Positions 7,929 to 52,556 of a stretch of DNA of 64,000 nucleotides are shown here, in pieces (within the stretch, counting starts at the first letter, position 1; each line of letters opens with the position of its first letter). The notes under the pieces were generated by a model, which did not search any database, was not told the origin of the DNA, and saw only the letters and a program-made list of their open reading frames with translations. The stretch lies in IMG/VR virus record IMGVR_UViG_3300023297_000003; one strand, 5' to 3'. Position numbers and translations under genes: made by a program. The stretch comes from a virus. Taxonomy: Duplodnaviria; Heunggongvirae; Uroviricota; Caudoviricetes.

Positions 7929-9274
7929 TAAGAAGGCTTGTGTTTTTTGTTTTTCTTTAGTAAACTGCAACCATGGGATTGAGAACTTAAGGTGGCTAAA
8001 TGATTCGGTCTTCTGCCCATAGTTTGCGGTTTGCAAACCCAGGTAAGGTGAGATTGGTAGGCGAACTTATCGGAGAGTACCGCCTTTTTGTCCAATGCAT
8101 CATAAACGACATATGGGAGAAGGGGTTTCCAGCGTGGAACATTTTCCCAAGCTCAAACAGACTGGACTTCAAGGGCAAGAATCATTTACCCACAAAATAT
8201 CTCAAGCAGTTCCCAACGTGGATGTCAGCAAGGCTTCAGCAAGCTGCTGGAAAACAAGCCATTATGATGCTCAAGGCAGCCACAGAGAAACGACGGAAAC
8301 AACTTTTCGTGTTGGCCAACCTTCAGCGAGAAGGTGGCAAGTACAAACGACTTCAGTCAAAGGTTGACCGGCAACCTCTTGTTAAGCCAGATGCTTCAGG
8401 AATCAATCTGGAACTAGACTCTCGCTTTGTGAGTTTCCAAGAGACAGACATCTTTTGTTTGTCCAACTCTCATCCCTTGGTATTCCACACATTAGAGTCC
8501 CCATCAAAAGAACTCGATGCTCCAACAAGTGGCAGACTAAAGGAATCCTGAAAGTGTGTGTTAGGATCTCTGAAGACACACTACATCTAATTTACGAAGT
8601 ACCAAACAAAAACGTTTCAGGAAGTCAGATAGTTGGGGCAGACCAGGGATTAGTTACTGCGTTGACTCTTTCAAATGGTGCAACGACACTGTCGTGTCCC
8701 CATGGGCATAACCTCCAAACGATCCAAGCAAAACTTGCTCGTAAGCAAAAGGGATCGAATGGCTTTCGTCGTACCCAAGAGCATCGCAAGAACTACATCC
8801 ATTGGTCCTTGAATCAACTTAACTTCAAGGACGTGAAAGAAGTTCGTTTTGAGAAGATCAAGCATCTCCGTAGGGGTGAACGGAGTTCACGTTATATGTC
8901 ACACTGGCGTTACACTTTGATCAAAGACAAACTTGTTCGTCTCTCTGAGGAGGAAGGTTTCCTTTTTCGGGAGGTAGCGAATGAGTTTAGGTCTCAGAGG
9001 TGTAGCCAATGTGGCTGGGTCCGTAAGAGTAACAGGAAAGGTAAGACGTTCAGATGCGGCAAATGTGGTTTTATCACCGATGCTGACTTGAATGCGGCTT
9101 CCAACTTGAAACTCGATCTCTTTGAGATCCAATGGTGGGTGCGGCTAAGTCAAATAAATCGTAAAGGGTTCTTCTGGACTTCTGATGGTTTGTTTGATGA
9201 AGGGCGGGAGCCTATAGTCCCCGTTACCATAAAAGACAATGAAAGCAAGAAATTGCTACAGCATTGTTGACTAT
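7917..9274 (+). mobile_element. Non-autonomous tnpB-only IS200/IS605/IS607-superfamily element, copy 1 (1358 bp)
   Basis: Near-identical to 46514-47872 in inverted orientation; shared ends AGCTTACCTTGATAAG ... CATTGTTGACTAT. Confidence 0.9.
8000..9270 (+). pseudogene. tnpB: TnpB split by a 1-nt deletion (T4 at 8453-8456 versus T5 in copy 2)
   Basis: ORFs 8000-8551 and 8455-9270 together match the intact 423-aa copy; GADQG, RFEKI, zinc finger and DADLNAA are retained. Confidence 0.9.
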
Positions 9275-9299
9275 AGTTCCTCTACCAAAGGTAAGGGAC

Positions 9300-12200: not shown

Positions 12201-12908
12201 CCGGAGTTGATTCGCATCTGCGGGTCACATAAGGTTGTTGTCGGGCTCATCACCAACGGCAGTCTCCTCTGGAAAAATGCTGCGGAGCTTCAGGGGCTTC
12301 CCATCAGCTACCTTTCCGTGTCCTTGAATGCCACCACGGCGGAGGAGCACCAGGCCACGACCCGCACCGATTTCTGGCTCAAGGTATTAGAGGGGATCCG
12401 ATTAATGAGTGCCTCCCCGATCCGCTCGGGAGTGTCCTATGTCGTAACGAATAGCAATGCACACAGGATCCCTGCCCTCCTAGCTCTGGCAAAGGAACTT
12501 AGAGTTCAATTCGTACACCTGATCAATGTGTTGCCTCACAATGGCCCATTGGACAAGGACTTCTTGAACGACGTCTTAACCCCCAGATCTGACAAAGCGT
12601 TAGCGGAAATAGCACACGCCAAAACTTGTCCGGGGGCGGAATTGGTCGAGGTGTGGCCTGAGGTGATCCTGGGGCCAGAGGGTGCCCCAGGCAAATGTAT
12701 GTCACCGATGGTCTCTCTGGGGTTGGACGCCAAGGGAGCGATTTCGGGGTGCAGACGGATAGATCCCCCATCTGAGTCCTCCGGTAACATACGGCTCGGA
12801 GGTACTTGGCAGAACAACCACTATGCTCAACTGCGGCTGTCCGTAACGGGGGACCAGCCGAACGCTCACCCGGCGTGTCAGGGTTGCTTTGGAAACTGGA
12901 AGGGATAG
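9300..12908 (+). CDS. Multidomain GT2 + GT4-like + GT2-like + radical SAM/SPASM-like protein (about 1200 aa)
   Basis: THHRPQLL..CLDSL and LADDDD; HTSLSDTWPYLVMEA.YAGTPVV; YVQIDAD; CNFKCVFGTTPC, GFGEPLLHP, ITNG; C-terminal CMSP..SGC..CQGC. Confidence 0.85.
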   Translation: MKAAFLVATHHRPQLLRACLDSLQQQQGIPDGWDVEILVAGEAEDPGKEVAAEADVPYQVVADPKVTVKLNALVARTDAELVMLADDDDLQPPNRAAASIQAFLEGYEWSGTRNCYFYDMIHDCVTFWKGDKDGLVGTSMSYTTKLLREIRGWPPIPNGKDAKAAYRIRRLPRKPAHKDITSLLEGMPVCLQHGENIWDRPVLESERSMVRGRFIVTGKGNRATWAESEAKELLRRGLGVLDGTWVAPNPPKEAPKKISATPQVITPRPPPILVPQGNVPLTCVPGGAGQQAFTDGLLSIGFKAVSRAEADEALRSGQPVLFHGWWTGARKLCAYYPKLAHILWHSGFAGSDLMGEGGTLSEALRMSASGQGRFLWLETRDVLPVGATRMVPVWDSQRLQSLGRAPKKPGSVMVGFCGHYPSNAKNILACVAGATQTSGHLHLSTSSTLELRGAAVQALLVAAQSWKTYGVLSRGAAVKLVSSMDVMIHTSLSDTWPYLVMEAIYAGTPVVLCDTIRWVKDLPKWAQELCCVRPAIASDEIRRLTQHLLDHPADRIKLLHAQRELLDRLSLQYKAEATDILQGLGFPMMPQEPVPAAVTAPALSLSTPALVNPPVHPIRVNPPAHPAKESEMANGKQDLQNFVTVFVISSGEPSTPTCHKHLDNQDSLFLREDIRNVAPMWRAFQQMMDRCQTPYYVQIDADMLLDPSAIRRLYEKITTTKAAQYVGWLWDDDVHRPIQGVKIYNHAICKQYPYKEALSCEMGQNELLRTNGHEIVADNSPGRVRKETNGVWTEEYTRTAEIFGTHLASQTPEMAFVRWKRLMQKHRKLSWMGWLSKYPQMLMQEWLAEPGNEIRQAKFLGATVGLTGEQPEDKEMDFRAADQDYRRLASYVGEFSHGPREMTLYLTDKCNFKCVFGTTPCKRQTPEGVPQQGDITPATLTTALNRYPTIRGCCIAGFGEPLLHPQLPELIRICGSHKVVVGLITNGSLLWKNAAELQGLPISYLSVSLNATTAEEHQATTRTDFWLKVLEGIRLMSASPIRSGVSYVVTNSNAHRIPALLALAKELRVQFVHLINVLPHNGPLDKDFLNDVLTPRSDKALAEIAHAKTCPGAELVEVWPEVILGPEGAPGKCMSPMVSLGLDAKGAISGCRRIDPPSESSGNIRLGGTWQNNHYAQLRLSVTGDQPNAHPACQGCFGNWKG

Positions 12909-25817: not shown

Positions 25818-26637
25818 TGAAGGGCACTGACAAACACCAGTGTAAATGGTGCAAGCAAAGGAAAGCGGTCTCCTCTGTCCGAGGGCGAAACTTCCGGTGG
25901 CGGCAGGATCACCCTCTCTGTTTCCAGTGTTACCGTTCACTACAAGAACGTCTGAAGCAACAATTGATCGTAGCCCAAACCCAGGAACAGGTGGCTGTCT
26001 GATGGTTACATTCATCCAGATCGTCCTGAGCTGGTTTGTGGTCGGGGGGTTTGTCCAGATGCTGTTGTTCCTCGCAGGACTGGCTGGGAGTTACACCCGA
26101 GGACCCGAGTACGCCACCTGGGTGAACGAGCACCCCCACAGGCCCAAGGACAGACCGATGACCCCGAAGACCCTCTTCCTTCTCCTGGGGATGTGGCCGG
26201 TCTTCCTGTTCATCTTCCTCAGGGCATGTCAGGCACACCAGACCCCTGACGAGTGGGTGCTGCGGACAGCAGAGCGACAGGACCAACGACAACGAGACCA
26301 GATCGAAGCTGCTGTGGTCCGTATCCATTGGTGGAGTAATTTCACTACCAGGATAGCCACCGAGGGCAACCCCTTGATCTACGTTCGGACGGTGTTTTAC
26401 AAAGACGGTTCCGGGGCCACCACCCACATGGTTCTCGGAGGCCCTGACAGCGTGTACCTGCCCGTGAGGCTGTCAGACCAGGACCGACCGCTAGTTGCAC
26501 CAATGAAACCTGTGCGGACGTTAGACGCAGCCAAGCGGCTGTGTGACGAGGACATCAAATGGTTGACAGCATGCCTTCCTGGGAACGAGGTTTCGAGGAG
26601 TGTCCTGTCCCGTCAAAGCAAGGAGATCCCCATATGA
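25817..26637 (+). other. Small zinc-ribbon ORF (25817-26002) and a two-TM membrane protein (26002-26637)
   Basis: CKWC..CFQC; two hydrophobic segments. Confidence 0.65.
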
Positions 26638-27206
26638 CCGCTTCCAACAGATGCCCCCTGTGTGGCAACCCTCAGATCGGCTGTAACCTGGACTGTTCCC
26701 ACTGTCGTGTGGTGGCCCGGAAGAACTACCGGGGCCGTCCAACGAAGATCAACCTCTACCTGGATGACGTCCGGGGTTGTCCCTTTCCCGGCGACACGGA
26801 AGGTCCCTGGTACGAATCAAGACACATGAAGATCATCCCAGACGAACCAGGTGAGGGTATCGATTGGTTCGTCGTCCGCACCTACGCACGGTGCATCGAG
26901 ATGCTCCAGCAGGAGGCCATCGGGACCCTGTCCCTGGACCACGACATCGCTGACTACAGTCCCGAGAAGGGGCGTGAGGTGACGGGATATGATGTCCTGT
27001 GCTGGCTGGAAGAGCAACTCGATCGAGACATCAATTTCCCGATCCCGAACGATATCAGGGTCCACTCCGCCAACCCGGTAGGACGGAAGCGCATGGCCTC
27101 TGTGATCGAGCGGCTGGCCCGGAAACGGGATCTGCTGGCACGGATGAACAGACGACAGGAAGACACCCCCTCACCAAGTCGGTGGGGAAATGGGCTGAAC
27201 AAGTGA
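26634..27206 (+). CDS. Cyclic-phosphate-processing receiver (cREC)-like domain protein
   Basis: LYLDDVR.CP, VRTY, LSLDHD, TGYDVL.WLEE, VHSANPVGR..M. Confidence 0.8.
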   Translation: MTASNRCPLCGNPQIGCNLDCSHCRVVARKNYRGRPTKINLYLDDVRGCPFPGDTEGPWYESRHMKIIPDEPGEGIDWFVVRTYARCIEMLQQEAIGTLSLDHDIADYSPEKGREVTGYDVLCWLEEQLDRDINFPIPNDIRVHSANPVGRKRMASVIERLARKRDLLARMNRRQEDTPSPSRWGNGLNK

Positions 27207-27222
27207 GCAAACGATAGGTACC

Positions 27223-27250
27223 GGGATCATCTGACCGACCTACAGAGTAG
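27223..27250 (+). promoter_or_regulatory. Promoter-like motif GGGATCATCT-N12-GAGTAG
   Basis: Exact motif upstream of the macro domain gene. Confidence 0.8.
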
Positions 27251-27291
27251 TCTAGGTGAGGGCAAAGGACCCCCGCAAGGAGACACGCAAA

Positions 27292-27864
27292 ATGAGGCTG
27301 CATTACTACCGGGGGAACATCGTCCACGCACAGGTGGACGCCATCGTGAACGCTGCCAACCCCAGGATGCTTGGCGGTGGGGGGGTCGACGGGGCCATTC
27401 ACCGAGCGGCGGGTCCGGGGCTGAGGGCTGCGTGCAGGGAGTTCCCCGAGTTGGAACAGGGTGTCCGCATTCGGGTCGGACAGGTTCGGACGACCGAGGG
27501 CTTCGACCTGGACGCCGATTTCGTCATCCACACGGCGGGGCCGATCTTCGCTGGGTACGGCATACGAAGCCTCCGACCGGGCGAGCGGGTCGAACCCCGG
27601 CCCCTCAATGAACTCATGCACTGCATCGTCAACTGCCTGAAGGAAGCGGCCCGGATCGGAGCCAACAGGGTCGCCTTCCCCGCCATCTCAGCAGGGGTCT
27701 ACGGGGGCAGCGTGTCGGCCTTTGCCCACGCCCTCCACGAGGCCATGAAACAGGAAGCCCGCCTCCCCATCGAGGAGGTCCAGGTCGTCCTGTTCCAGGA
27801 CAACGAGTTCCAGGAGTTTAGCGACTGGCAGGAAACAGCGGACGACGCTCCGCCCATCCCCTGA
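27292..27864 (+). CDS. Macro domain ADP-ribose hydrolase (MacroD/YmdB-like)
   Basis: VDAIVNAAN..MLGGGGVDGAIHRAAG, VIHTAGP, AFPAISAGVYG. Confidence 0.95.
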   Translation: MRLHYYRGNIVHAQVDAIVNAANPRMLGGGGVDGAIHRAAGPGLRAACREFPELEQGVRIRVGQVRTTEGFDLDADFVIHTAGPIFAGYGIRSLRPGERVEPRPLNELMHCIVNCLKEAARIGANRVAFPAISAGVYGGSVSAFAHALHEAMKQEARLPIEEVQVVLFQDNEFQEFSDWQETADDAPPIP

Positions 27865-28779: not shown

Positions 28780-29112
28780 ATGGCGGAAAAGGACGACACC
28801 AAAGAACTGAAGATGTGGTACGCTTTTGGGTTTCGGTCTCCCACGCAGTCACACCACCTCTATGAGGGGCGTATCGAGGCCGAGACCATAGAGGACGCCT
28901 TCGACTTCGTGTTCCGCCACGCTGACAACAGGAACAGGTTCAAACGCTATGTCGGTTTTTGGGTGCAGGAAAACATGATGAGCCGCACAGGGGATCTGCG
29001 TGTCGGATGGATCACCCCCTCAAGATACATGTCCCCCTCCTACCAGTGGAGATTACGAAAACCCGAAGACGTCCCGTTGAGGACGGAGGTGACAGCAAAT
29101 GAAAACCCCTGA
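28780..29112 (+). CDS. Hypothetical protein, first gene of the helicase operon
   Basis: RBS after the motif; overlaps the helicase start. Confidence 0.65.
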   Translation: MAEKDDTKELKMWYAFGFRSPTQSHHLYEGRIEAETIEDAFDFVFRHADNRNRFKRYVGFWVQENMMSRTGDLRVGWITPSRYMSPSYQWRLRKPEDVPLRTEVTANENP

Positions 29113-31078
29113 AACTCGTACCTTGCGCCCCTATCAGCAGGACTGTTTCCGGCACTTGTTCCGGCACGTCACCAACGGGAGACGAGAGGTAGTGCTGAGT
29201 GGTCCCACCGGAAGCGGCAAATCCCTCATGGTGACCTATCTGGCCGAACGGTTGCTCAACACGGAGATGTTTCGGTTAGCCGTTGTTCTCGCCCCACAGT
29301 GTCAGATTTCGGATGCCTTCATCTATGAGGGAGACCTGAAGATCCGCCCCAGCGAGGAAGTACCCCAGGGAAGAGTGTCTGTTGGGGGGCCACTCACGGT
29401 AGCGGCCCTTCAGTGGTTCCAAGTTCGGGATGGTAAGCGCCGGGAGTACCTCAAAGATCACGTCAGAAGTGTCCGCCCGGTTAACCGGGTGCTGGTCACG
29501 ACACATATGGCGGCGGCAGTCTGGTTTGCCCCTGACCTTCTCCCCAAGGACATGACCGGGCGTCTCCTGATCGTGGACGAGGCACACCACACAGCCCCCG
29601 AGAACGGTGTGGGTACCTTCGTCAAGGAGTGGCAGACCCGAGGGGGCACAGTCATTCACGTGACTGCCACGCCCTTCCGCACGGACGGTGATACCCTTAT
29701 TGATGACAACGCCCCCCGCTGGGACCGCACGCTGGCATCCCACATGGAGGGAGGCCAGTACGCACCGGGGCAGCTTTCTTTCCGCACACATCCTCTGGGC
29801 ATAAAGGCGAACACGACGAATCAGCTTGCTGGCGAGTCCATGACCAGTACTGCCCCACTCCAAACCTGTATCGACATCGTGGACTTGTGGGTCAAGGACA
29901 AGCGCCCCAAGGCTGTCATCATCGTCCCCGCTAACAGTGCCGATGCGTGGTCTAAACGGCTGGAGGACGAGTTCACCAGGCAGGGAGCGAGGGTACACAA
30001 CGCCATCAAGGGGGGGCAACGAGCCACCGACGCCCTCAAGCACCTCCTCCGAAAGGAACGTCGGGTCCGAGCCTACGAGGACTCCACCGTAGACGTGATC
30101 CTTGCCTGTGCCCGGTTCAATGAGGGAACCGACTGGCCCCTGTGCAGCCATGTCTACAACATCGGCCTGACCAGTTCCTTCGTCCGCATCCTTCAACGCC
30201 TGGGGCGGGCGTTGCGCTTCAAGGGAGCCATCGATGGCTACCCCGAGGAGCACAAGAACACGGCCACCTTCACCTTCCTGGTACCCTGTGTGACCGAGAA
30301 CTTGTTTGCCCAGTTCGAACAGCAGCACCAGGATCATGCCTTCCTGACGGCGTGCTTCATGGCGGATTTTAGTGTCGGCCAGGACTACATCCTGGGGGAC
30401 ATCCAGCGACGTTTGGAGGACATCGGGCACAAGCGTCAGGGCAAAAAGCATCGCCCGGCGGAGGAAACCTGGGAGGATGTCACCCAGTTCATCGGGGCTG
30501 ATGTTCAACAGTGCCGGGAGGCCATGGGTCTCATGGTCAAGGCCGTTATCCTTCTCCGTGAGAGTGGGGTCAAGAAACCGACCAACAAAGAGGTGGCCCA
30601 CTACCTGAGGACAGCGATGCGGTTGTCCAAGGAGCAGATGGAACAGGCTGAACGAGCACTGGCGTACAGCATCCTCAAAAAACAAACCCGAGCCTTCTCC
30701 TACTTTCACAAGACCCTGTGGAGGAAGGCCCAGGGCGGGGATTTGTCTGACTACCGCATCATCCGAGAGGAGTTGAGGCCGGTCTTCGACGCAGTGATCC
30801 AAGAGTTCGAAGGGGCGACGGCGGACATTGGTCAGGCGGACAGGGTCGTTGACTTCCTGTCCCGTTTCGAGGGCAGGACAGCGAAGCAGGTCGCTGAACG
30901 TCTGAAAGCTGCGATACCTCCGCCACAGTTCACCTTGGCTCAGATAGATGACGCCTTGATGTCCTACTTTGAGGAGCACAAAGTTGAACCCCCTATTGAT
31001 AACACCGACGCTTCCCCTCACTTCAAGCTCCCCCCGATCACAATCAACTGGAAGCAGGTCTACGGGCAGATGCCATGA
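29099..31078 (+). CDS. SF2 DEAH-box helicase (ResIII-like)
   Basis: LRPYQ, GPTGSGKS, IVDEAHH, TATPFRTD, NEGTDWP, QRLGRALR. Confidence 0.92.
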   Translation: MKTPETRTLRPYQQDCFRHLFRHVTNGRREVVLSGPTGSGKSLMVTYLAERLLNTEMFRLAVVLAPQCQISDAFIYEGDLKIRPSEEVPQGRVSVGGPLTVAALQWFQVRDGKRREYLKDHVRSVRPVNRVLVTTHMAAAVWFAPDLLPKDMTGRLLIVDEAHHTAPENGVGTFVKEWQTRGGTVIHVTATPFRTDGDTLIDDNAPRWDRTLASHMEGGQYAPGQLSFRTHPLGIKANTTNQLAGESMTSTAPLQTCIDIVDLWVKDKRPKAVIIVPANSADAWSKRLEDEFTRQGARVHNAIKGGQRATDALKHLLRKERRVRAYEDSTVDVILACARFNEGTDWPLCSHVYNIGLTSSFVRILQRLGRALRFKGAIDGYPEEHKNTATFTFLVPCVTENLFAQFEQQHQDHAFLTACFMADFSVGQDYILGDIQRRLEDIGHKRQGKKHRPAEETWEDVTQFIGADVQQCREAMGLMVKAVILLRESGVKKPTNKEVAHYLRTAMRLSKEQMEQAERALAYSILKKQTRAFSYFHKTLWRKAQGGDLSDYRIIREELRPVFDAVIQEFEGATADIGQADRVVDFLSRFEGRTAKQVAERLKAAIPPPQFTLAQIDDALMSYFEEHKVEPPIDNTDASPHFKLPPITINWKQVYGQMP

Positions 31079-31782
31079 ACAAGTTCCGCAAAAGACTGGC
31101 CGAAATGGGGCTGGTGGAACCCGTATCCGAATGGTTCCTGGACTACGTGGCCCGTATGACACGGTACATGGAGGAAAATGACGGGAGGACACCCCCTCAG
31201 ACGTATGCCTGCGAAGATGGGTACAAGCTAGGGTCGAAAACCAACTCCATCCGAACTAGCTACCGCCGAGGAACTGGTCATAAGCTTACGTCCGAGATGA
31301 TTCGGATGCTCGATGACATTGGCTTCCCGTGGAACGGGAACGGGTGGTTCAAAGGTGTCCTTCGCCGTCTGATTGAGTACAAGGCGGAACACGGTCACTG
31401 CGCCCCCCCTGGCACGCATGTCCACCATGACGGATACAAGCTGGGGAAACGAGTACAAGTGATCCGTTCCGGAAGGAGGGGCATAGGTAGTCTCAAGGTC
31501 ACCTCCGAGATGGTCGAGCAGCTTGACGCTATAGGGTTTGTCTGGGACGCCTGCAACACTGGCAAATGGTGGCCAGAGTTCTACGCCCACATCAAAGCGG
31601 TGCTGGAAAAGTACCCCGTGGGCCACATCCCGAAGGACTACGTGTGCCCCGATGGGTACAAGTTGGGAGAAAAGGCGAGCCATGTTCGATGCGGGAGACG
31701 AGGCAAAGGTTTCCTCCAAGTGATCCCCGAGATGATCGCCAAACTTGATGCCCTCGGTTTCCTCTGGGTGGTTCCGAGATGA
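31075..31782 (+). CDS. Helicase-associated (HA) repeat protein, 3 repeats
   Basis: W....L.EY...HG...P..Y...DGY.LG......R......LD.IGF.W repeated three times. Confidence 0.85.
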   Translation: MNKFRKRLAEMGLVEPVSEWFLDYVARMTRYMEENDGRTPPQTYACEDGYKLGSKTNSIRTSYRRGTGHKLTSEMIRMLDDIGFPWNGNGWFKGVLRRLIEYKAEHGHCAPPGTHVHHDGYKLGKRVQVIRSGRRGIGSLKVTSEMVEQLDAIGFVWDACNTGKWWPEFYAHIKAVLEKYPVGHIPKDYVCPDGYKLGEKASHVRCGRRGKGFLQVIPEMIAKLDALGFLWVVPR

Positions 31783-32705
31783 ACAAGTTCCGGCAACGCC
31801 TCAGTGTGTTGGGTTATGTGCCTTCCTGGCCAGCTTGGTTTGACCTCTTCCTGGAGAAACTGAAGGAATACAAAAAGGAGCGTGGGCACTGTCAGGTGCC
31901 TAAATCCTACAAGTGTCCCGAGGACGGGTACCATCTGGGGGAACGGGTAATGGTTGTTCGGTCAGCTAAGAGAGGCAAAGGGAACGTCACACTGACCGAC
32001 GAGATGACCAAGGAACTCGACGCCATCGGTTTCGTATGGGATCCGAGGGAGTGGTTCCCTGAGTTCCTGGAGAAACTGAAGGAATACAAAAAGGAGCGTG
32101 GGCACTGTCAGGTGCCTAAATCCTACAAGTGTCCCGAGGACGGGTACAAGCTCGGGGGCAGAGTAGATAATGTCCGACAAGCTAAGAGAGACAAAGGGAG
32201 ACTCAAAATAGCCCCCGAAATGATCAAGGAACTCGACGCCATTGGGATCGTGTGGGATCCGAGGGAGTGGTTCCCTGAGTTCCTGGTGAGGCTGAGGGAA
32301 TACAAAAGGGAGCATGGCCACTGTCAGGTGCCGACGTCCTACAAGTGGCCCGAGGACGGATACCATCTGGGGGAACGGGTAAGGGGTGTTCGGTCAGCTA
32401 AGAGAGGCAAAGGGACGGTCATCCTGACCGACGAGATGACCAAGGAACTCGATGCCATCGGGTTCGTGTGGGATCCGAAGGAGTGGTTCCCTGAGTTCCT
32501 GGTGAGGCTGAAGGAATACAAAAAGGAGCACGGGGACTATCAGGTGCCCACATCCTACAAGTGTCCCGAGGACGGGTACAAGCTCGGGACACGGGTAAAG
32601 GGTGTCCGACAAGCTAAGAGAGGCATAGGCAGGATCAAAGTGACTCCCGAGATGATCAAGGAACTCGACGCCATCGGTTTCGTGTGGGAGGTCATCCGTG
32701 CGTAG
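31779..32705 (+). CDS. HA repeat protein, 4 near-identical repeats
   Basis: Four 72-aa HA units. Confidence 0.9.
   Translation: MNKFRQRLSVLGYVPSWPAWFDLFLEKLKEYKKERGHCQVPKSYKCPEDGYHLGERVMVVRSAKRGKGNVTLTDEMTKELDAIGFVWDPREWFPEFLEKLKEYKKERGHCQVPKSYKCPEDGYKLGGRVDNVRQAKRDKGRLKIAPEMIKELDAIGIVWDPREWFPEFLVRLREYKREHGHCQVPTSYKWPEDGYHLGERVRGVRSAKRGKGTVILTDEMTKELDAIGFVWDPKEWFPEFLVRLKEYKKEHGDYQVPTSYKCPEDGYKLGTRVKGVRQAKRGIGRIKVTPEMIKELDAIGFVWEVIRA
31836..32699 (+). repeat. Coding tandem repeat, 4 x 216 bp
   Basis: Units start at 31836, 32052, 32268 and 32484. Confidence 0.9.
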
Positions 32706-33702
32706 GAGGAGCAACAAATTCAGACTGCGGCTCGTTGAGCTTGGGCGGATGAAACCTTGGCCAGCGTGGTTCGATGAGTTCCACTCCCACCTTCAGACGT
32801 ACAAGGCGGAGCACGGGGATTGTGAAGTGCCCCACAACTACAAGTGTGAAGACGGGTACCGCTTAGGGAACAAGGTGGGGCGAATCCGTTCCGCAAGGAA
32901 GCGCCCATCAAACCGTGTGTTGACGGAGGAGATGAGTACTGCCCTCGATGCCATCGGTTTTGACTGGCTGGCTCCAAAAGATCGCTGGTTCCAAAAGTTC
33001 CGGGTTCGTCTGGTGGAATATATGACCGCTCACGACGGCCAAAACCCACCCGTTCCTTATGAGTGCCCCGATGGATACACCCTGGGTAAAACTGCCGCCG
33101 CTGTTCGGGCAGCGAAACGGGCAAGGGCACTGAATAAGAAGGCGTTCCGGCAACTCACGGATGAGATAATTGCTGACCTGGACGCACTTGGATTTGAATG
33201 GGAACCCTCGGAATGGTTCCCCGACTTTGTGCAGCGTTTGCGTGAATACAAGGCGGAACATGGGAACTGTTCGATCCCTGTCAAATTTGAATGTGCGGAT
33301 GGACACAAGTTAGGCCTGAGGGTCCAACGCATCCGAACGAGCATCCGCCGGTTGGAGGAGGGCAGCGATGAGTCGATGCCCCTCCAGGTCACCCCAGAGA
33401 TGGTCTTAAAACTGGATGCCCTCGGGTTCGAGCGGGACCGGAACCTGACGGGCAAATGGTTCCCCAAGTACCTCAGTCACCTGACGAAGTTCTACCGGGA
33501 GCACGGCGACAGCATGGTGCCCAGGGGATATTGCTGTCGGGATGGGTACAAGTTAGGGGCCATGACGAACAGCGTTAGAGAGGGCCGTAGGGACGCAACA
33601 GGTCGGAGGAAAATCACCCTGCCCATGGTTGCTGATCTAGCTGCCCTCGACTTTATGTGGGATGTTCGAATAACGGGATCATCTCGGCCACCTACAGAGT
33701 AG
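32698..33702 (+). CDS. HA repeat protein, 4 repeats
   Basis: NKFR leader plus four HA units. Confidence 0.85.
   Translation: MRRRSNKFRLRLVELGRMKPWPAWFDEFHSHLQTYKAEHGDCEVPHNYKCEDGYRLGNKVGRIRSARKRPSNRVLTEEMSTALDAIGFDWLAPKDRWFQKFRVRLVEYMTAHDGQNPPVPYECPDGYTLGKTAAAVRAAKRARALNKKAFRQLTDEIIADLDALGFEWEPSEWFPDFVQRLREYKAEHGNCSIPVKFECADGHKLGLRVQRIRTSIRRLEEGSDESMPLQVTPEMVLKLDALGFERDRNLTGKWFPKYLSHLTKFYREHGDSMVPRGYCCRDGYKLGAMTNSVREGRRDATGRRKITLPMVADLAALDFMWDVRITGSSRPPTE
33675..33702 (+). promoter_or_regulatory. Promoter-like motif GGGATCATCT-N12-GAGTAG
   Basis: Exact motif; its TAG is the stop codon of the upstream gene. Confidence 0.8.
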
Positions 33703-33721
33703 TCTTGGTAGGAGGTCGTCC

Positions 33722-34607
33722 GTGGGCAAAAGGAACAACAAATTCCGTGAACGTCTCGCCAAGCTTGGGCTGATGAAACCTTGGCCAGCGTGGTTCGATG
33801 TGTTCCTGGCACATCTGAAGGCGTACAAGGAAGAACACGGGGACTGTAAGGTGCCGCAGCTTTACAAGTGTACTGACGGGTACACATTGGGGAACAGGGT
33901 CGGGGACATTCGCAGGTTTCGACAAGGGAAAAGTGTTCGGACAGTGACTCCCTCAATGGTGCCTGTACTGGATCAACTCGGTTTCCTTTGGGAGATCCCC
34001 TGTTGGTTCGACGAGTTCCTCCGGCGTCTGAAGGACTATAAAGCCGAGTACGGCCATTGTCAGGTGCCCACCCAGTACAGATGTCAGGACGGGTATAGAC
34101 TTGGCCCAAAAGTGAATGCTGTTCGGACAGGCAAAAGGCACAAAGTGGGCGTCCAAATCACCCCGAGCAGGGCGGAGAAACTTGAGCAACTAGGTTTCCT
34201 GTGGGATGTCCCGACAGAGTGGTTCCCGGAGTTCCTGGAACATTTGAAGGCGTACAAGGCCGTGCATGGCCGTTGTCAGGTGCGTGGCACCTATGTATGC
34301 GATGATGGCTACAAACTAGGCCATCACACAGCGGGGGTACGAAATCACCGGGTCTTGACCCCCACTATGCGGAGCCAACTCGGTGCTCTCGGCTTTGTCT
34401 GGGACGCCACCACGAAAGGGCAGTGGTGGCCGGAGTTCCTTTGTCACCTCAGAGAGTACATGGACGCACACGGGGGACAGACACCCCCCCAAAAATACGT
34501 CTGCCCCGGCGGATGGCCGTAAACTGACACCCACTCAGATCAACCAGATTGATGTCCTCGGTTTCGTTTGGGATCTCCGCAATCAGAAGAAGGACAACAC
34601 CCCATGA
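33722..34607 (+). CDS. HA repeat protein, 3 repeats plus a broken 4th (in-frame stop at 34522; tail continues in another frame to 34607)
   Basis: CPGGWP* then RKLTPTQINQIDVLGFVW in a shifted frame. Confidence 0.75.
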
Positions 34608-35257
34608 CCACCCCGCAGGCTGACATCCATTCCTTCCCCCCTGAACAACACCCGGAGAAGCACAAGACCAGGACCACGACCCTCGACCTCCTCCGTGACC
34701 CAGAGTGCCCCACGAACCTCTTCTACGACGGGCACCTGACCAGGGACTGGATGGAGTTGTGCGGTGATGCCCCTGACGCTACCTGTGGCCTCCTCCTGGA
34801 CGAAGGCGTCCTTGCCCCCGACCATGGCCGATACATCGGCGTCAACACCAACCAGGGGATCCTTGACCGCAACGCCACCCACTACAACGACGACCGCACC
34901 GAGTGGCGTTGCGGCGACATGTCCCGGCTCCTCCTGGACCTGGACGACCCGACCCTCCGCAACATCGGCGTCCTCGTGTTCGACGGGTTTCGCAGTCCCA
35001 GCAACCTCCACCTGGAGAGCATCCTCCTTCCGATGTTCGCCTTTGCCCAGTCCCAACAGCAGCGCCTGGGACAATTCCTCCTGGTCATCAACCTAGCCCT
35101 CCGGGGCAACGCCAGCGCTCCCTTGGAAAAGGCGAAGCGGCAGTTCGAGGCCATCGTCCACAAACACTGCGGCGTCCAGGTGCCGAAGCAAGCGTTCACT
35201 ACGTACCGCAGCCGAGTCATTCCGATGCAACTCCTCCGCCTTTCCTACGGCTGGTAG
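34604..35257 (+). CDS. Rossmann-fold methyltransferase-like protein
   Basis: MELCG..., YIGVN....L..N, WRCGDM, GVLVFDGF resemble class I MTase motifs I/II/III/IV; divergent. Confidence 0.45.
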   Translation: MTTPQADIHSFPPEQHPEKHKTRTTTLDLLRDPECPTNLFYDGHLTRDWMELCGDAPDATCGLLLDEGVLAPDHGRYIGVNTNQGILDRNATHYNDDRTEWRCGDMSRLLLDLDDPTLRNIGVLVFDGFRSPSNLHLESILLPMFAFAQSQQQRLGQFLLVINLALRGNASAPLEKAKRQFEAIVHKHCGVQVPKQAFTTYRSRVIPMQLLRLSYGW

Positions 35258-35267
35258 GAGGTCGTCC

Positions 35268-35987
35268 GTGGGCAGGAGTAACAGCAACAAATTCCGTAAA
35301 CGCCTCACTGAGCTTGGGCGGATAAAACCTTGGCCAGCGTGGTTCGATGTGTTCCTGGGGGAAATCAAAGCCTATCAGAAATGTCATGGACATTGCCGAG
35401 TGCCGCAGTCCTACCTGTGTGACGACGGGTACAGGTTGGGTGCCCGTGTAAGTAGTGTCCGGCATAACAAGTCCAGACACCTTCCCGAAATGATCGCTGA
35501 ACTTGATGCCCTGAAGTTCGTTTGGGTTGTGTGCGAATGGTTCCCTGAATTCCTGTCCCACATGAAGGAGTACAAAAAGACCCACGGGCACTGCCGTGTC
35601 CCAAAGTCCTACAAATGTCCCGATGGTTACGCCCTTGGGATGAGGGTATCTGATGTCCGGACAAGAAAAAAGGACAAGAAACGTGTAAGCCCTACCTCAG
35701 AGATGATAGCGGCGCTGGACCTTCTTGGGTTCGTCTGGAATGGGAACGAGTGGTTTCCCCAATTCCTGAAGAGGCTGAAGGAGTACCATGCCAAATTCGG
35801 GGACTATTCTCCGGCGCAATCCTACAAATGCCCCGATGGCTACCAACTCGGTGTTCGAACAAACAGTATTCGTTCATCCCGTAATGGTGGGGGTCAGGTC
35901 AAGGTGACTCCCGAAATGGTCACCGAACTGGACGCTCTGGGTTTTGTCTGGAGTCTCAGGGGATCATCCAAGCCCACCCCTGAGTAG
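35268..35987 (+). CDS. HA repeat protein, 3 repeats
   Basis: NKFR leader plus three HA units. Confidence 0.85.
   Translation: MGRSNSNKFRKRLTELGRIKPWPAWFDVFLGEIKAYQKCHGHCRVPQSYLCDDGYRLGARVSSVRHNKSRHLPEMIAELDALKFVWVVCEWFPEFLSHMKEYKKTHGHCRVPKSYKCPDGYALGMRVSDVRTRKKDKKRVSPTSEMIAALDLLGFVWNGNEWFPQFLKRLKEYHAKFGDYSPAQSYKCPDGYQLGVRTNSIRSSRNGGGQVKVTPEMVTELDALGFVWSLRGSSKPTPE
35960..35987 (+). promoter_or_regulatory. Promoter-like motif GGGATCATCC-N12-GAGTAG
   Basis: Motif match; its TAG is the stop codon of the upstream gene. Confidence 0.75.
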
Positions 35988-36010
35988 TCTCCAGTACAAG
36001 GAGGACGAAC

Positions 36011-36346
36011 ATGAAGAACAAGACACCTGAGACGCCCTGGTTCCCCGAGTTCCTGAGTCGCCTGACGGCCTACCGAAAGGCACACGGTCACTGTGTGGTG
36101 CAACGCCTTGGGAGGACGAACAGGACATCCGAGAAGCCCTGGCTCCCCAACTTCCTTTCCCACCTGACGGCGTTCAAGCGGGCGCACGGCCACTGTGCCG
36201 TGCCCCACAACTACGTCAGCCCGGACGGCTACAAGCTGGGAAGCCGTGTCGGAACGGTCCAGGAGGGGCAGCACAAGGTCAGGATGACCCCGGAAAGGAT
36301 CGCCCAGTTGAACGCTCTCGGATTCACCTGGGACACCAAGGAGTGA
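36011..36346 (+). CDS. HA repeat protein, 1.5 repeats
   Basis: Half repeat followed by a full repeat; the 5' leader is duplicated internally. Confidence 0.8.
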   Translation: MKNKTPETPWFPEFLSRLTAYRKAHGHCVVQRLGRTNRTSEKPWLPNFLSHLTAFKRAHGHCAVPHNYVSPDGYKLGSRVGTVQEGQHKVRMTPERIAQLNALGFTWDTKE

Positions 36347-36969
36347 AAATGGAACACAAAACACCACTCGAACTCGTTCAGCGTATCGTTGCACACCACG
36401 GACCGATCCTCGGGAAGCAGGTCGTGTCCCTGTGCGCCAGCGTGGGCTACACCAACAAGCGCTCCACGGGAGCGGTCCTGTTCAACGCCCGCAGAGCGAA
36501 GACCCTGACCAAGGACGCCCATGGCCGATGGACCTGTCCTAAGTCGAAAACGACTGGACAAGCCTGACACGACAGAGGTATCCTTCAGCAATGGACACGA
36601 GGAACCACATCGATAGTGCCTTCATATCCGAGCGGGTGACGCCCGCTGGAGGAGGATGCTATGGACCGTGGAACCCGCCGCCAGAGGACAGCAAATGTCA
36701 TCCGTTCACGTCTTGAAATCTACAGCGCTCCCGAGGATGTGGAGCCACATCGGTACGCCAAGACCCCATCGTTAGCCTGCCACTGCCGCAAGCGCACTTT
36801 CGGTCGTCCTCGTATGAGCCGGGGCATCTGTGACATCGGGTGCCGTGACCGGATCTATCGGTGGCGACGAGAAACACGAGAGTTTAGGACATGGGCACGA
36901 TGCCAGGGTGTGGATTGGGAGGACGACAGCGTCACCCTGATCTTTGTCCCCCGGAACAAGTGGGTGTGA
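36343..36969 (+). other. Two small hypothetical ORFs (36343-36567, 36661-36969)
   Basis: RBSs; co-oriented. Confidence 0.6.
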
Positions 36970-37025
36970 AAGTCCTTGCCGGTCAGAGATCGTCGTGTAG
37001 AGTGGGGCTGTCAGAGGAGGACGTT

Positions 37026-38141
37026 ATGCCCAAAAGACTCACGTTGGATGACGCAGACATTGTTCGTCGGTACCAAGCGGGGGAACTGGAGTTGCACATT
37101 GCTAAGGCACTAGGTGTTTCAGCACCTGTGATTCATCGACGGTTGGCTAAAGCAGATGTTTCTTTCCGCACCCACAGTGAGGCTGCAACAATCGCTCAAG
37201 GCAAACGAGATGCAAAAACAACGGAAAGCCTTCCCGCTGAGTATCTGTCAGGACGTTCTGTCTCTGAGTTAGCGAAGGCAACGGGTTTCAGTCGCAACTG
37301 GGTGCGTATCCGTTTAGAGCGGGCTGGTGTTCCTCTACGGGGGGTACAGGAGGCACATACTCTGATTTGTCACAAGACCTTCCCTACCACAGAGGAGTCC
37401 CTTGAATTAATCGATGGTTTACTTCTTGGTGACGCCTGGTTGGAAAAAACAGGTGGCAGTGAGGGTCGTCTGGGACTAGCACAAAGAGCAGACCGAAAGG
37501 AATGGCTTGAACAGGTTCAAAGGGAACTTAGGGCCGGGGGTGTTAAAAGCAACATAAAACCACGTCCGGCAAGAATCGGTCACATTGGGAAACAGGTTCT
37601 CCGAGGTAACCCGAGTTTACAGTTAAGGACACTGAAATACAAAACATTTACGGACCAGCGCCTCCGTTGGTACCCAAAGGGTAAAAAAATTATTCCTCTG
37701 GACATCCGGCTAACCCCCCGAGCGTTAGCGCATTGGTACTGGGGTGATGGTGGGCTGATTAATACAGGGTATGGGGTAGCCTTTTGCACGGACGGTTTCA
37801 CCTGGGAGGATGTCGAGTTTCTAGCCTCTAGACTGCGGCTACTTTATGGTTGGTCTCCTCGTGTGCAGAGCCACAGAGGGAATCCTAGACTGGTCCTAAG
37901 CCAACGAAAACACCGACTGGAACTGGTGGCCCTAACGGAACCTTTTTGTCCTGATTGCTTCCGATACAAGCTTCAGGTGAGGGGTAAAGCTCCCGCAAAA
38001 ATTGATCAAGTCGAAAAGGAACTCCGTCAACTGAGGGGGCAAGGCTGGACACAAAAACGCATTGCGGAACATTTTCAAATGACCCCGGCATGGGCTGGGT
38101 GGGCCTGCCGACGACTAGGGCTAGAGAAGGAGTCAAACTAA
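37026..38141 (+). CDS. Free-standing LAGLIDADG homing endonuclease with HTH segments
   Basis: IDGLLLGDAW and LAHWYWGDGG; FCTDGF; N- and C-terminal HTH-like segments; own GAGGAGG RBS. Confidence 0.88.
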   Translation: MPKRLTLDDADIVRRYQAGELELHIAKALGVSAPVIHRRLAKADVSFRTHSEAATIAQGKRDAKTTESLPAEYLSGRSVSELAKATGFSRNWVRIRLERAGVPLRGVQEAHTLICHKTFPTTEESLELIDGLLLGDAWLEKTGGSEGRLGLAQRADRKEWLEQVQRELRAGGVKSNIKPRPARIGHIGKQVLRGNPSLQLRTLKYKTFTDQRLRWYPKGKKIIPLDIRLTPRALAHWYWGDGGLINTGYGVAFCTDGFTWEDVEFLASRLRLLYGWSPRVQSHRGNPRLVLSQRKHRLELVALTEPFCPDCFRYKLQVRGKAPAKIDQVEKELRQLRGQGWTQKRIAEHFQMTPAWAGWACRRLGLEKESN

Positions 38142-39456: not shown

Positions 39457-40878
39457 CTAGAATGTAACAGGCATCAAGTTTGAGGCTGTGCCGATCCTTG
39501 GTAACCCAAGTGCCTCGGTAGTAAGCTCCCGGCCCAACGGTAAGGGCTCGGATGACGGTTGCTCTTGCCGTCCGAATCCCAAGGAACTGGTCCGCTTAAT
39601 ACGGAATCGCTCTCTTAGCACTCGTTTTACGCCTCGTGGGTGATCATTAGCTTTGATGTGTTCGTCTCCAGAACGTCTGAGCACACCAGCGCTTCCTACC
39701 CAATCAGCATGAGCTTTCCTGCCGCACGAGCGGCAACGGAACCTTATTGAACTTCGGTTTCCTCGATGAACATAACCACAAGAAGGACACTCCTGCGACG
39801 TGTAAGCAGGGTTCACTTTCTTTGTTGGAGCTTTCCTTTCCAAGTTGATCTGTAACGCCCTGTAAGCAAACCTTTTTTGACCCCTACAACCTCGAAGATC
39901 GAGATCTTCGACCACGAACACCGTCTCGGGATGACGAACGATAAGGGTGTTTACCACACGACCCGTCTCTGTCTTGATCAACCCACTCAATTTGCTCTCA
40001 AGGTGATCCAACTTTGGGCTGTTATCCTTCAAATCCTGCCGTTGGCGATTTGCTCGAAGATTTCTGACACGAGCGTAGAGTTTGTCGAACTTAGGTTTGA
40101 CGTGTTCACCGTAAATCACTCCATCTGATGTAGCTGCAAGGACGTTCAGACCAACGTCAACGCCCAACTTAGGCCAACCTTCCTGTGCTTCGGGAACAAC
40201 CCATTCAGCCTTACTGACCGCCTCAAAGCGCCAAAAGCCTCGCTTGGTTTTGCGGGCTGAGATCCCTTTGCTGACCTGATCAGCTTGTTGAATGTAAAGA
40301 TTCCCAACGAGAGGCAACCAGACGGACTTACGAGCTTCTAACGAAGACACCCTCAACCAGAAGTCCCCGAGAGGGGCTTTAGATGCGTCCTCCAACCGAG
40401 CCGTCATCTCCGACAACCGCATGGGCAGGTTGTCCCTTACGATAGGCTTATTACCTCCGTAGGTGTCCAACAGGGTGTGGTAGGCGTCGAGATGGTCTTG
40501 GGTGATAAACTTCCAGGGCTTACTGATGGCTTTTAATCCGATGACACAGAGTGCTTTGGCGTCCTGTTCGGTGAGGGTACCCTCGTGCTTGAGGTTGGTG
40601 ATAGTCGGTTTCAACTTGCGGGCGTAAGTGGCTTTGGCCCAAGCGCTCACAATTTGGATAGCGTGGTCTCGTGCGATCTTTTCGATTTGGGACGTAAGGT
40701 TGGTGGCCCGTGGGAAGAACGTTTGTTTGGCGGCTTTCGGGAGATTATAGACCTGCTGGTCAAGCATCGTTTGTACGCAAATGCGGACGTACTTGACGTA
40801 TGCTTTGTGTAGGGCTTCCAACTTATCGATCTTGGACTGATTGGTATCCTTGTGAAGTCGGAAGATGCGACACTTCAT
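39457..40878 (-). CDS. tnpB: TnpB, second family (473 aa); probable tnpB-only IS with unresolved ends
   Basis: LGVDVGL, FVVEDL, SQECPSCG..CRSCG, HAD; TTCCTG-N7-CAGGAA hairpin upstream of the start. Confidence 0.9.
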   Translation of the reverse strand: MKCRIFRLHKDTNQSKIDKLEALHKAYVKYVRICVQTMLDQQVYNLPKAAKQTFFPRATNLTSQIEKIARDHAIQIVSAWAKATYARKLKPTITNLKHEGTLTEQDAKALCVIGLKAISKPWKFITQDHLDAYHTLLDTYGGNKPIVRDNLPMRLSEMTARLEDASKAPLGDFWLRVSSLEARKSVWLPLVGNLYIQQADQVSKGISARKTKRGFWRFEAVSKAEWVVPEAQEGWPKLGVDVGLNVLAATSDGVIYGEHVKPKFDKLYARVRNLRANRQRQDLKDNSPKLDHLESKLSGLIKTETGRVVNTLIVRHPETVFVVEDLDLRGCRGQKRFAYRALQINLERKAPTKKVNPAYTSQECPSCGYVHRGNRSSIRFRCRSCGRKAHADWVGSAGVLRRSGDEHIKANDHPRGVKRVLRERFRIKRTSSLGFGRQEQPSSEPLPLGRELTTEALGLPRIGTASNLMPVTF

Positions 40879-51179: not shown

Positions 51180-52556
51180 TTACTCCCCGAACAGGTCTAG
51201 GATGAGGTTGCTCTCATCAGTTTCAGTACTCTTCTGTGAGGAGGAGGGCGCACCCCCTAAACGGGTCAGGGCGAGATCCAGATAATCTTCTTGAAGATCA
51301 ATCCCTATGTAGTCCCTGCCGAAACGCATTGTTACGACTCCCGTGGTTGCCGAACCCGAAAAAGGATCAAGTACAGTACAAGGGATAGGTTTTTCAAGGG
51401 CACAGGCACAGGAAGCCTGCCATCCAACAGTTCGTTTTTGGATTGTGTCCGTTAGGGGTGACGACGATTGTCCTCTTTTGTAACTACCCTCCCCAGCAAG
51501 TTCTCCGGGTATACCCTTGGGGATCATTTTGTCCTTGCGCCAGTCACGCCCCCCTTCCTTTTCTATCACCCGTTCCCACTGTGCCCCACAGGCCGGACAG
51601 CAACCCTTTTCGCTCGTTCCCGCTTTGATCATAGGTTCAACCAGGGCTTCCGGCCATACGGCGAAATGAGCACCTCTATAAGGCTGTGTACTGATTGTCC
51701 AAACAGAACGCCTATTTCGTTTCCCATCAGGGGTATCCTGAGCACTTACCTCACGAGATACCGTTGACCAAGCTTGACGCAACTGTCCCTGACGAGAAAT
51801 AACATCTTTAGGACGCCCAACAGGTCTCCTTAATGGTTTCATTACCGCAGGCTCTCGAAGTGCCTCATTGTCGTAGAAATACCGTTTCGATTTCGACAAC
51901 ATGAAAATGTATTCATGTTGTCGGGTGCAGCGATCCCGCACGGGTTCTGGCATGGGGTTAGGTTTACAAAAAATGATATCCTGACGTAACCACCACCCAT
52001 CCGCTTGAAGTGCAAAGGCCACCCTCCAGGGAGTGCCAACCAGATCCTTAGGCTTTAAACCAGAGGTTGTTTTGCCCCTACCAATCCCACTCTTTCCATG
52101 AAGCCCTGAGGCATGCTTACCCCCTGTTGATCCCCCCCACTTCCCGTCATTCGCATAACTGTCCCCAAGATTCAGCCACGCTGTCCCGTCTTTGCGGAGT
52201 ATCCGATGTAACTCGCGAAACACCAATATAATGTGGATGACATAGAGCGCAGGGGTCGGCTCTGCACCTAATTCCCCTAGCCATGCCCCACACTTAACAC
52301 ATGATGCGTCCTTCCACAGATGGTCACATCCGGGTTCTCCGCCCCACACCTGAGGAGGCGTTCCATAGTCACGAAGACCCCAAAAAGGAGGACTGGTGCA
52401 AATGGTGTGGACACTCTCAGCGGGTAATTGCCGAAGCGTGTCTATGACGTTAGCACCGTAGTAAAGATCCGCTTTCGGGGGGTCGTCCCCAAGAGGAGCA
52501 AATACAGTGACAGGATCCATCAGGACTCCTTTGGGGGTGTGAAGTGTTCGTGGCAC
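51180..52556 (-). CDS. Beta-class N4/N6 DNA methyltransferase
   Basis: TSPPFWGLRDY, LNLGDSY, KPNPMPE, HFA.WP, VLDPFSGSATT. Confidence 0.92.
   Translation of the reverse strand: MPRTLHTPKGVLMDPVTVFAPLGDDPPKADLYYGANVIDTLRQLPAESVHTICTSPPFWGLRDYGTPPQVWGGEPGCDHLWKDASCVKCGAWLGELGAEPTPALYVIHIILVFRELHRILRKDGTAWLNLGDSYANDGKWGGSTGGKHASGLHGKSGIGRGKTTSGLKPKDLVGTPWRVAFALQADGWWLRQDIIFCKPNPMPEPVRDRCTRQHEYIFMLSKSKRYFYDNEALREPAVMKPLRRPVGRPKDVISRQGQLRQAWSTVSREVSAQDTPDGKRNRRSVWTISTQPYRGAHFAVWPEALVEPMIKAGTSEKGCCPACGAQWERVIEKEGGRDWRKDKMIPKGIPGELAGEGSYKRGQSSSPLTDTIQKRTVGWQASCACALEKPIPCTVLDPFSGSATTGVVTMRFGRDYIGIDLQEDYLDLALTRLGGAPSSSQKSTETDESNLILDLFGE

Follow-up and report, generated by a model that had tools for sequence, protein, structure and literature searches.

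Selection for diversity at four helix-2 positions in the HA repeats encoded next to a phage helicase gene

The present study deals with an array of HA domain repeats encoded in a 64,000-nucleotide stretch of DNA (the window) of a virus of the Caudoviricetes, IMG/VR record IMGVR_UViG_3300023297_000003, where the array directly follows a gene for a superfamily 2 (SF2) helicase. It was found that four positions in the second helix of the repeat, namely positions 1, 4, 5 and 8 of an octapeptide which stands behind a conserved Leu-Gly (L-G), vary under selection and not neutrally. These four positions could be the specificity face of the known HA domain, a face that would probably contact DNA and work together with the adjacent helicase. 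We hold this to be about as probable as its opposite, and the readings that compete with it are taken up below together with the evidence that bears on them.

Downstream of the helicase gene there are seven short, close-set genes on the plus strand, and six of these match the Pfam family HA (PF03457) with scores of 73-178 bits, the gathering cut-off being 28.4. The stop codon of the helicase gene and the start codon of HA gene 1 overlap in the sequence ATGA. For delimiting the domains a hidden Markov model (HMM) was built from the array's own repeats, and it detects 18 full HA repeats, R01 to R18, and two partial ones (Table 1). An initial annotation of this DNA had listed the eight residues after the L-G for each repeat, and all 18 octapeptides translate exactly as it quoted them. 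The two partial repeats had escaped it, and an open reading frame (ORF) without HA repeats falls within the span that it had assigned to the array.

The repeats are 62-75 residues long and are three-helix bundles, not a solenoid. An AlphaFold2 model of a single repeat, for which the 18-repeat alignment was the input, has a predicted local distance difference test score (pLDDT) of 86 and helices at residues 2-16, 34-45 and 55-63; the L-G and the octapeptide belong to the second of these. As modelled, helix 2 has the octapeptide as its core. Since the octapeptide lies in helix 2 and the spacing of positions 1, 4, 5 and 8 is i, i+3, i+4, i+7, these positions make up one helix face, as the initial annotation had proposed, and it is the solvent-facing side of the helix. 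In an exhaustive VIA search of 48,161 chains the top solved match of the single-repeat model was 2KTA, a nuclear magnetic resonance (NMR) structure from Bacteroides vulgatus (Z 5.7, root-mean-square deviation 2.2 Å over 58 residues), and the next-best match had a Z of 4.0. The Z-score of 2KTA is modest, in keeping with a helical domain of 68 residues. Foldseek gave no match with the four-repeat model or with the single-repeat model and missed 2KTA, and neither a single HA protein nor the profile of the 18 repeats found anything real among PDB sequences. Weak sequence matches to complement factor H were judged to be due to chance.

Over the 18 aligned repeats, the column entropies at positions 1, 4, 5 and 8 are 3.46, 2.97, 3.02 and 2.86 bits (first, fourth, third and sixth in rank). 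Positions 2, 3, 6 and 7, which are occupied by R/K, V/T/A, V/I and R, have 1.61, 1.22, 0.92 and 0.31 bits, and so the division of the octapeptide into constrained and variable positions made by the initial annotation holds. One column in loop 2 (3.12 bits) and one in loop 1 (2.97 bits) are comparable. Variation is thus concentrated on the helix-2 face yet not exclusive to it, as a few other columns are nearly as variable.

It should be noted here that an ordinary amphipathic helix could look much the same, with a conserved buried side, an exposed side that drifts neutrally and nothing that is recognised. The i, i+3, i+4, i+7 pattern is typical of any surface helix, helices 1 and 3 likewise alternate between conserved and variable positions, and across the wider family several loop columns equal the four positions in entropy (3.5-3.8 bits). 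Conservation on the buried side with variability on the exposed one is the null expectation for any helix, and hence substitution rates were tested. The rates were obtained by parsimony counting of events on trees and not with a likelihood site model. Most repeats of the window are only 45-65% identical at the nucleotide level and are saturated for such a test; R04-R07, all in HA gene 2, share 78-86% nucleotide identity and are the only young repeats of the window. In the C-terminal half of R04-R07 the pairwise synonymous difference is 0.19-0.44. The pairwise nonsynonymous difference is 0.21-0.88 at the four codons and 0.03-0.17 in the rest of the C-terminal half. When counted on trees, the ratio of nonsynonymous to synonymous change is 2.0-2.6 at the four codons (P 0.02 to 0.0007 by tree) and 0.35-0.40 outside them. 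In a comparison of orthologs at 60-70% identity the synonymous sites were saturated, which is why young paralogous repeats were used. Members of the population clusters are almost identical and yield no usable rate signal at the population level.

Four sequences are few, and therefore independent metagenomic HA loci were used. A profile scan of a metagenome collection gave 54 HA-repeat loci, from which repeats of one protein with a synonymous difference below 0.40 were taken as pairs; columns 36, 39, 40 and 43 of the HMM correspond to positions 1, 4, 5 and 8 of the octapeptide. The nonsynonymous difference exceeds the overall synonymous difference of 0.27 in few columns, namely 24, 25, 36, 39, 40, 43 and 44. 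A weaker excess is present at columns 50 and 55, and that at column 47 rests on about 8 sites. Taken locus by locus, an excess over the synonymous rate is present at the four positions in 12 of 14 loci; on the hydrophilic faces of helices 1 and 3 it is present in 2 and 3 of the 14, respectively. When only the synonymous sites in the neighbourhood of helix 2 were considered, the excess was still present in 12 of the 14 loci (Wilcoxon P 0.002), so that a locally older recombination tract is not its cause. Independent tree-based counts were made on 16 young-repeat clusters from 14 metagenomic HA loci, with the window excluded. The rate ratio for columns 36, 39, 40 and 43 was 1.84 (confidence interval 1.54-2.18, P 2e-10), as compared to 0.47 for the hydrophilic face of helix 1, 0.53 for that of helix 3 and 0.39 for all other columns.

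Variation at positions 1, 4, 5 and 8 is therefore selected. The initial annotation had suggested a per-site comparison of nonsynonymous and synonymous rates, with neutral or evenly spread variation as the outcome that would speak against a recognition code. The comparison gives a ratio of about 2 in the young repeats of the window and the value above in the independent loci, and the variation is neither neutral nor even over the surface. A neutrally drifting amphipathic helix is thus an improbable explanation, as the rate at the four codons lies above the synonymous rate and not merely above that of buried sites, whereas the hydrophilic faces of helices 1 and 3 reach only about 0.5.

The highest ratio of all in the independent HA arrays, 2.72, belongs to column 24, which is the residue of loop 1 just after a conserved V-P; column 25 has a ratio of 1.56. 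The signal at column 24 was kept when the clusters were restricted to equal loop length, and it is thus not an alignment artefact. This hypervariable loop position was absent from the initial annotation. In the four-repeat model a beta-bridge connects loop 1 with the residue immediately before the L-G, and because of this bridge column 24 may adjoin position 1 of helix 2 and be part of the same surface.

Composition of the face points in the same direction. Among 686 distinct HA repeats, D and E together account for 4.5% of the residues at the four positions and for 28% on the hydrophilic face of helix 1, and N, S, T, H and G for 47% and 13%, respectively. Such depletion of acidic residues and enrichment of N/S/T/H/G would be unexpected on a free solvent-exposed face, which is a further point against neutral drift. 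In the window the net charge per repeat is +4.7 for helix 2 with the loop that follows, the most basic segment, and -1.9 for helix 3. Going by residue composition, an acid-poor face of small polar residues set among invariant basic residues is what a helix in contact with nucleic acid would be expected to look like. HA domains are described as "previously shown to bind DNA" (PMC12191111). PLD nucleases carry them C-terminally, at the place of the substrate-selecting domain (PMC12191111), and a fusion of HA to the Tn7 target selector TniQ is also on record (10.1101/2025.07.27.667033). Literature searches found almost no functional work on the HA domain and nothing on HA hypervariability.

A number of points weigh against the proposal of a selected specificity face. 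Only 4 of the 18 repeats in the window are young enough for the rate test, the others being saturated at about 50-60% nucleotide identity; the ratios are parsimony counts and not likelihood estimates, and the controls on helices 1 and 3, taken as "exposed", were picked from the sequence and not by solvent accessibility. The excess could also consist of old differences that were shielded from gene conversion and not of fast substitution; however, either of the two implies selection for differing residues between repeats. In addition, in P0121, the one diverged population variant, the four positions of R04-R06 are kept and 23 other residues differ. Repeat identities that are fixed would account for this single sequence better than an arms race still under way.

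Within a specificity face of this kind, positions 3 and 6 (V/T and V/I) would pack into the bundle, and the positive part of the module would be formed by the basic residues conserved at positions 2 and 7 along with the K/R-rich stretch that follows. The variable side would probably be extended by position 9 and by the loop-1 residue after the V-P. As selection keeps this side different between the repeats, it would be the surface in contact with a ligand. The ligand is most likely DNA, and each repeat could have its own, sequence-selective binding preference. HA proteins with several repeats could be playing the role of separate targeting or anchoring subunits of the helicase.

Relatives of the locus lend context to such a role. 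L002, a 64-kb contig of a related phage, has a helicase gene followed immediately by an HA array, of which the first HA gene has eight repeats; the two helicases are 54% identical. The linkage between helicase and HA array is thus conserved and the division of the array into genes is not. L008 (7175-10801) and L016 (157-4206) are single proteins in which a Mrr-type nuclease, an SF2 motor and 8-10 HA repeats are joined, and L049 (6584-10432) has matches for the SF2 motor and the HA repeats, with no nuclease family matched. The first ~600 residues of L008 and L016 match the PADLOC model of a Type IIG restriction-methylase over positions 16-649 of its 1646 (E-values 3e-126 and 3e-84). The match stops at position 649, and the HA repeats come next. 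The array therefore stands in place of the methylase and target-recognition part, which is circumstantial support for a targeting role. Proteins of the L008, L016 and L049 type may be an undescribed class of methylase-less nuclease-helicases. The helicase of the window starts at the motor without a nuclease domain and, among restriction-type models, has only weak matches to PbeA and ResIII. No relative was found by tblastn of a phage collection, in IMG/VR with the helicase, an exact DNA pattern and the repeat profile, or in a reference-genome collection, and the exact DNA pattern had no match in the metagenome collection.

The selected surface could be directed at something other than a base sequence, such as modified bases, DNA structure or proteins of the host defence or of a partner, with its diversity generated by conflict between phage and host. 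The study that finds HA in the substrate-selecting position of PLD nucleases is concerned with the sensing of hypermodified phage DNA (PMC12191111), and the bacterial relatives are nuclease-helicases without a methylase, which is typical of modification-dependent or non-classical restriction. The residues at the four positions, taken as four-residue words, are wholly different between the window and L002, with none shared, and the window itself codes for several DNA methyltransferases and a glycosyltransferase-radical SAM fusion. On the other hand, acid depletion and the basic setting favour nucleic acid over a protein partner, 18 different faces are more than the few modifications that one phage probably meets, and the unchanged words of R04-R06 in P0121 argue against rapid turnover in this phage lineage. 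On this evidence a ligand of such a kind is rather unlikely.

The array also bears the marks of recombination. R04-R07 are mosaic, as their N-terminal halves pair R04 with R05 and R06 with R07, and their C-terminal halves pair R04 with R06 and R05 with R07. The population variant P0002 of HA gene 2 has three repeats and not four; exactly R05 is missing and the sequence is otherwise identical, which shows that repeat number is polymorphic. In P0121 helix 2 of R07 is replaced by an R06-like helix 2. In a close relative, L001 (442-840), helix 1 and loop 1 of the R08 counterpart are nearly the same as here, and the half made up of helix 2 and helix 3 is a different one. From the R04-R07 mosaics, P0121 and L001 it appears that half-repeats are exchanged around the conserved D-G-Y-x-L-G motif. 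A diversity-generating retroelement is unlikely as the source, since the codons of R04-R07 do not differ in an adenine-specific manner and the population variants are nearly identical; no dedicated search for a reverse transcriptase or a template repeat was part of this assessment.

A stricter form of recognition would be a modular code: positions 1, 4, 5 and 8 of every repeat would be matched to a set number of neighbouring base pairs, the arrays would spell out a composite target, and swapping residues would reprogram it. Everything that speaks for a selected helix face poor in acidic residues speaks for this form too. The four positions are spaced like the zinc-finger positions -1, 2, 3 and 6, the linkers are short and belong to classes (8 of the 13 junctions have 4 residues), repeat number varies in the population as P0002 shows, and half-repeats are exchanged at the D-G-Y-x-L-G motif. 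However, no small alphabet of residues is in use, as 593 different words were counted among the 651 four-residue words, near the 637 obtained with shuffled columns, and all 18 words of the window differ. The modules are globular bundles of ~70 residues and not a solenoid, and the four-repeat model has a predicted template modelling score (pTM) of 0.35, so that the placement of repeats relative to each other is not confident. Division of the array over six proteins likewise argues against one continuous readout. We consider a strict code very unlikely. The initial annotation had put forward a zinc-finger- or TALE-like modular readout that might be programmable; of this, the selected helix face has stood up and the modular, programmable code has not. 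The chance appears slight that HA arrays form one more natural class of modular DNA readers, in which repeats of ~70 residues read a few adjacent base pairs each through helix-2 positions 1, 4, 5 and 8 with the loop-1 residue, composite targets are spelled in this way in the phage helicase partners and the bacterial nuclease-helicases, and exchange of residues or half-repeats retargets them.

As to the layout of the array, linkers between repeats come in classes. Those with 4 residues are often D-P-R/K-E, and linkers of 7 residues, ending in T-G-K or K-G-Q, are present at 3 of the 13 junctions; the long class also occurs in the relatives P0003 and P0013. A leader, N-K-F-R-x-R-L-x-x-L/M-G, is common to five of the six HA genes (31075-31130, 31779-31835, 32698-32765, 33722-33790 and 35268-35340), and in four of them P-W-P-A-W-F comes next. 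By eye the leader is like helix 3 of a repeat, with equal spacing from G to W, but it escapes the repeat HMM. Also seen by eye, and rejected as the HMM gave no support, was a partial HA repeat that would lie at the C-terminus of the helicase and be completed by the leader of the next gene.

The ORF without HA repeats that follows the truncated repeat of HA gene 4 has no match in Pfam, PHROG, PADLOC or NCBIfam, and its nearest ESM Atlas clusters are viral hypothetical proteins. A reading of this ORF as a methyltransferase was rejected since no family match backs it. Its position after a truncated repeat looks like an insertion or rearrangement within the array. The contigs recorded as carrying HA proteins of the window reach 528 kb, and the array looks as if it belongs to a very large phage; no virion genes were seen within the 64-kb window.

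Table 1. Positions of the helicase gene, HA genes and HA repeats in the window
Feature	Position	Strand	Helix-2 octapeptide	Remarks
SF2 helicase gene	29099..31078	+		659 amino acids (aa); Pfam ResIII, DEAD, Helicase_C; PHROG 16 DNA helicase
HA gene 1	31075..31782	+		235 aa; R01-R03; Pfam HA E 3.8e-24; 3 full HMM domains
R01	31129..31332	+	31234-31257	
R02	31342..31545	+	31447-31470	
R03	31564..31767	+	31669-31692	
HA gene 2	31779..32705	+		308 aa; R04-R07; Pfam HA E 2.8e-53
R04	31836..32039	+	31941-31964	
R05	32052..32255	+	32157-32180	missing in population variant P0002
R06	32268..32471	+	32373-32396	
R07	32484..32687	+	32589-32612	
HA gene 3	32698..33702	+		334 aa; R08-R11; Pfam HA E 5.4e-39; 4 HMM domains
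R08	32764..32967	+	32869-32892	L001 counterpart with other helix 2-helix 3 half
R09	32983..33201	+	33088-33111	
R10	33211..33435	+	33316-33339	
R11	33454..33660	+	33559-33582	
HA gene 4	33722..34522	+		266 aa; R12-R14 and truncated fourth repeat; Pfam HA E 4.2e-36
R12	33788..33991	+	33893-33916	
R13	34001..34204	+	34106-34129	
R14	34217..34402	+	34322-34345	
Truncated HA repeat	34421..34516	+		helix 1 and part of loop 1; stops at the end of HA gene 4; HMM positions 1-32 only
Non-HA ORF inside array	34568..35257	+		229 aa, or 217 aa from internal Met
HA gene 5	35268..35987	+		239 aa; R15-R17; Pfam HA E 1.1e-32
R15	35337..35525	+	35442-35465	
R16	35535..35738	+	35640-35663	
R17	35748..35951	+	35853-35876	
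HA gene 6	36011..36346	+		111 aa; partial repeat, then R18; Pfam HA E 2.4e-20
Partial HA repeat in HA gene 6	36038..36103	+		covers HMM positions 2-23
R18	36137..36331	+	36242-36265	

The neighbourhood of the array holds a LAGLIDADG homing endonuclease, TnpB genes, HNH endonucleases, several DNA methyltransferases and a Macro-domain gene. The LAGLIDADG homing endonuclease (36891-38141), which has N-terminal helix-turn-helix (HTH) domains, lies directly downstream of the array, and a TnpB gene is located at 39457-40878 on the minus strand. Upstream of the helicase, at 26559-27864, a cREC_REC (cyclic-phosphate processing receiver) gene adjoins the Macro domain gene. DNA methyltransferase genes are found at 1-1416 and at 51180-52556 (minus strand), and an ORF of 1214 aa at 9264-12908 has matches to glycosyltransferase family 2, glycosyltransferase group 1 and radical SAM. 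This ORF and the methyltransferase genes may have a role in the modification of DNA or of a surface.

The present analysis identifies the surface that probably gives a widespread and little-studied DNA-binding repeat its specificity. Four positions of helix 2 and one of a loop outpace silent sites in this seemingly huge phage and in unrelated metagenomic HA arrays. The HA domain has long been catalogued and has one solved structure; what is added here is the selected variable face, and with it the question of what HA arrays recognise becomes directly answerable. Should the repeats turn out to be both sequence-selective and additive, designed DNA binding would gain a new scaffold. Otherwise they would still be a clear case of selection for diversity inside a repeat array.

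Comparison with known systems places these repeats within the HA family, as they have the family match (PF03457), the three-helix fold of 2KTA and the arrangement in tandem copies by an SF2 helicase. They differ from the usual members in having R/K for the usual W at helix-2 position 2 and V/I for the usual Q at position 6, in carrying D-G-Y-x-L-G before helix 2, and in being encoded by small genes of their own, unfused to the helicase. SF2 helicases with HA tails (ResIII-Helicase_C-HA x n) are alike in the order of helicase and HA and have the same four hypervariable positions. Some of them are Mrr nuclease-helicases with 8-10 HA repeats, whereas the helicase of the window has no nuclease and its repeats are unfused. 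Fused forms are present in L008, L016 and L049, and the unfused order in the window and L002. Type ISP restriction-modification enzymes of the LlaGI/LlaBIII type combine a Mrr nuclease, an SF2 motor, a methylase and a target-recognition domain. The bacterial HA relatives share the nuclease-motor part with Type ISP/IIG enzymes, and in them the HA array replaces the methylase and target-recognition part; the window helicase is without the nuclease and matches the models of these enzymes weakly.

With C2H2 zinc fingers the HA repeats have in common the tandem small modules, variation at i, i+3, i+4 and i+7, a conserved framework, short linkers and signs of diversifying selection. This likeness is an analogy only, with no sign of membership. 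The Cys2His2 set is absent, the H and the C of an H-G-H-C motif in loop 1 each being present in 12 of the 18 repeats, and in contrast to the ~28-residue beta-beta-alpha finger the HA module has ~70 residues and three helices. TALE arrays resemble the HA arrays in a framework that is partly homogenised by recombination, in a few positions that are kept different and in a repeat number that varies between strains. However, a TALE repeat has 33-35 residues and two helices, builds a superhelix and carries two variable residues drawn from a small alphabet, while an HA repeat has three helices, four to six variable positions and almost no recurring words.

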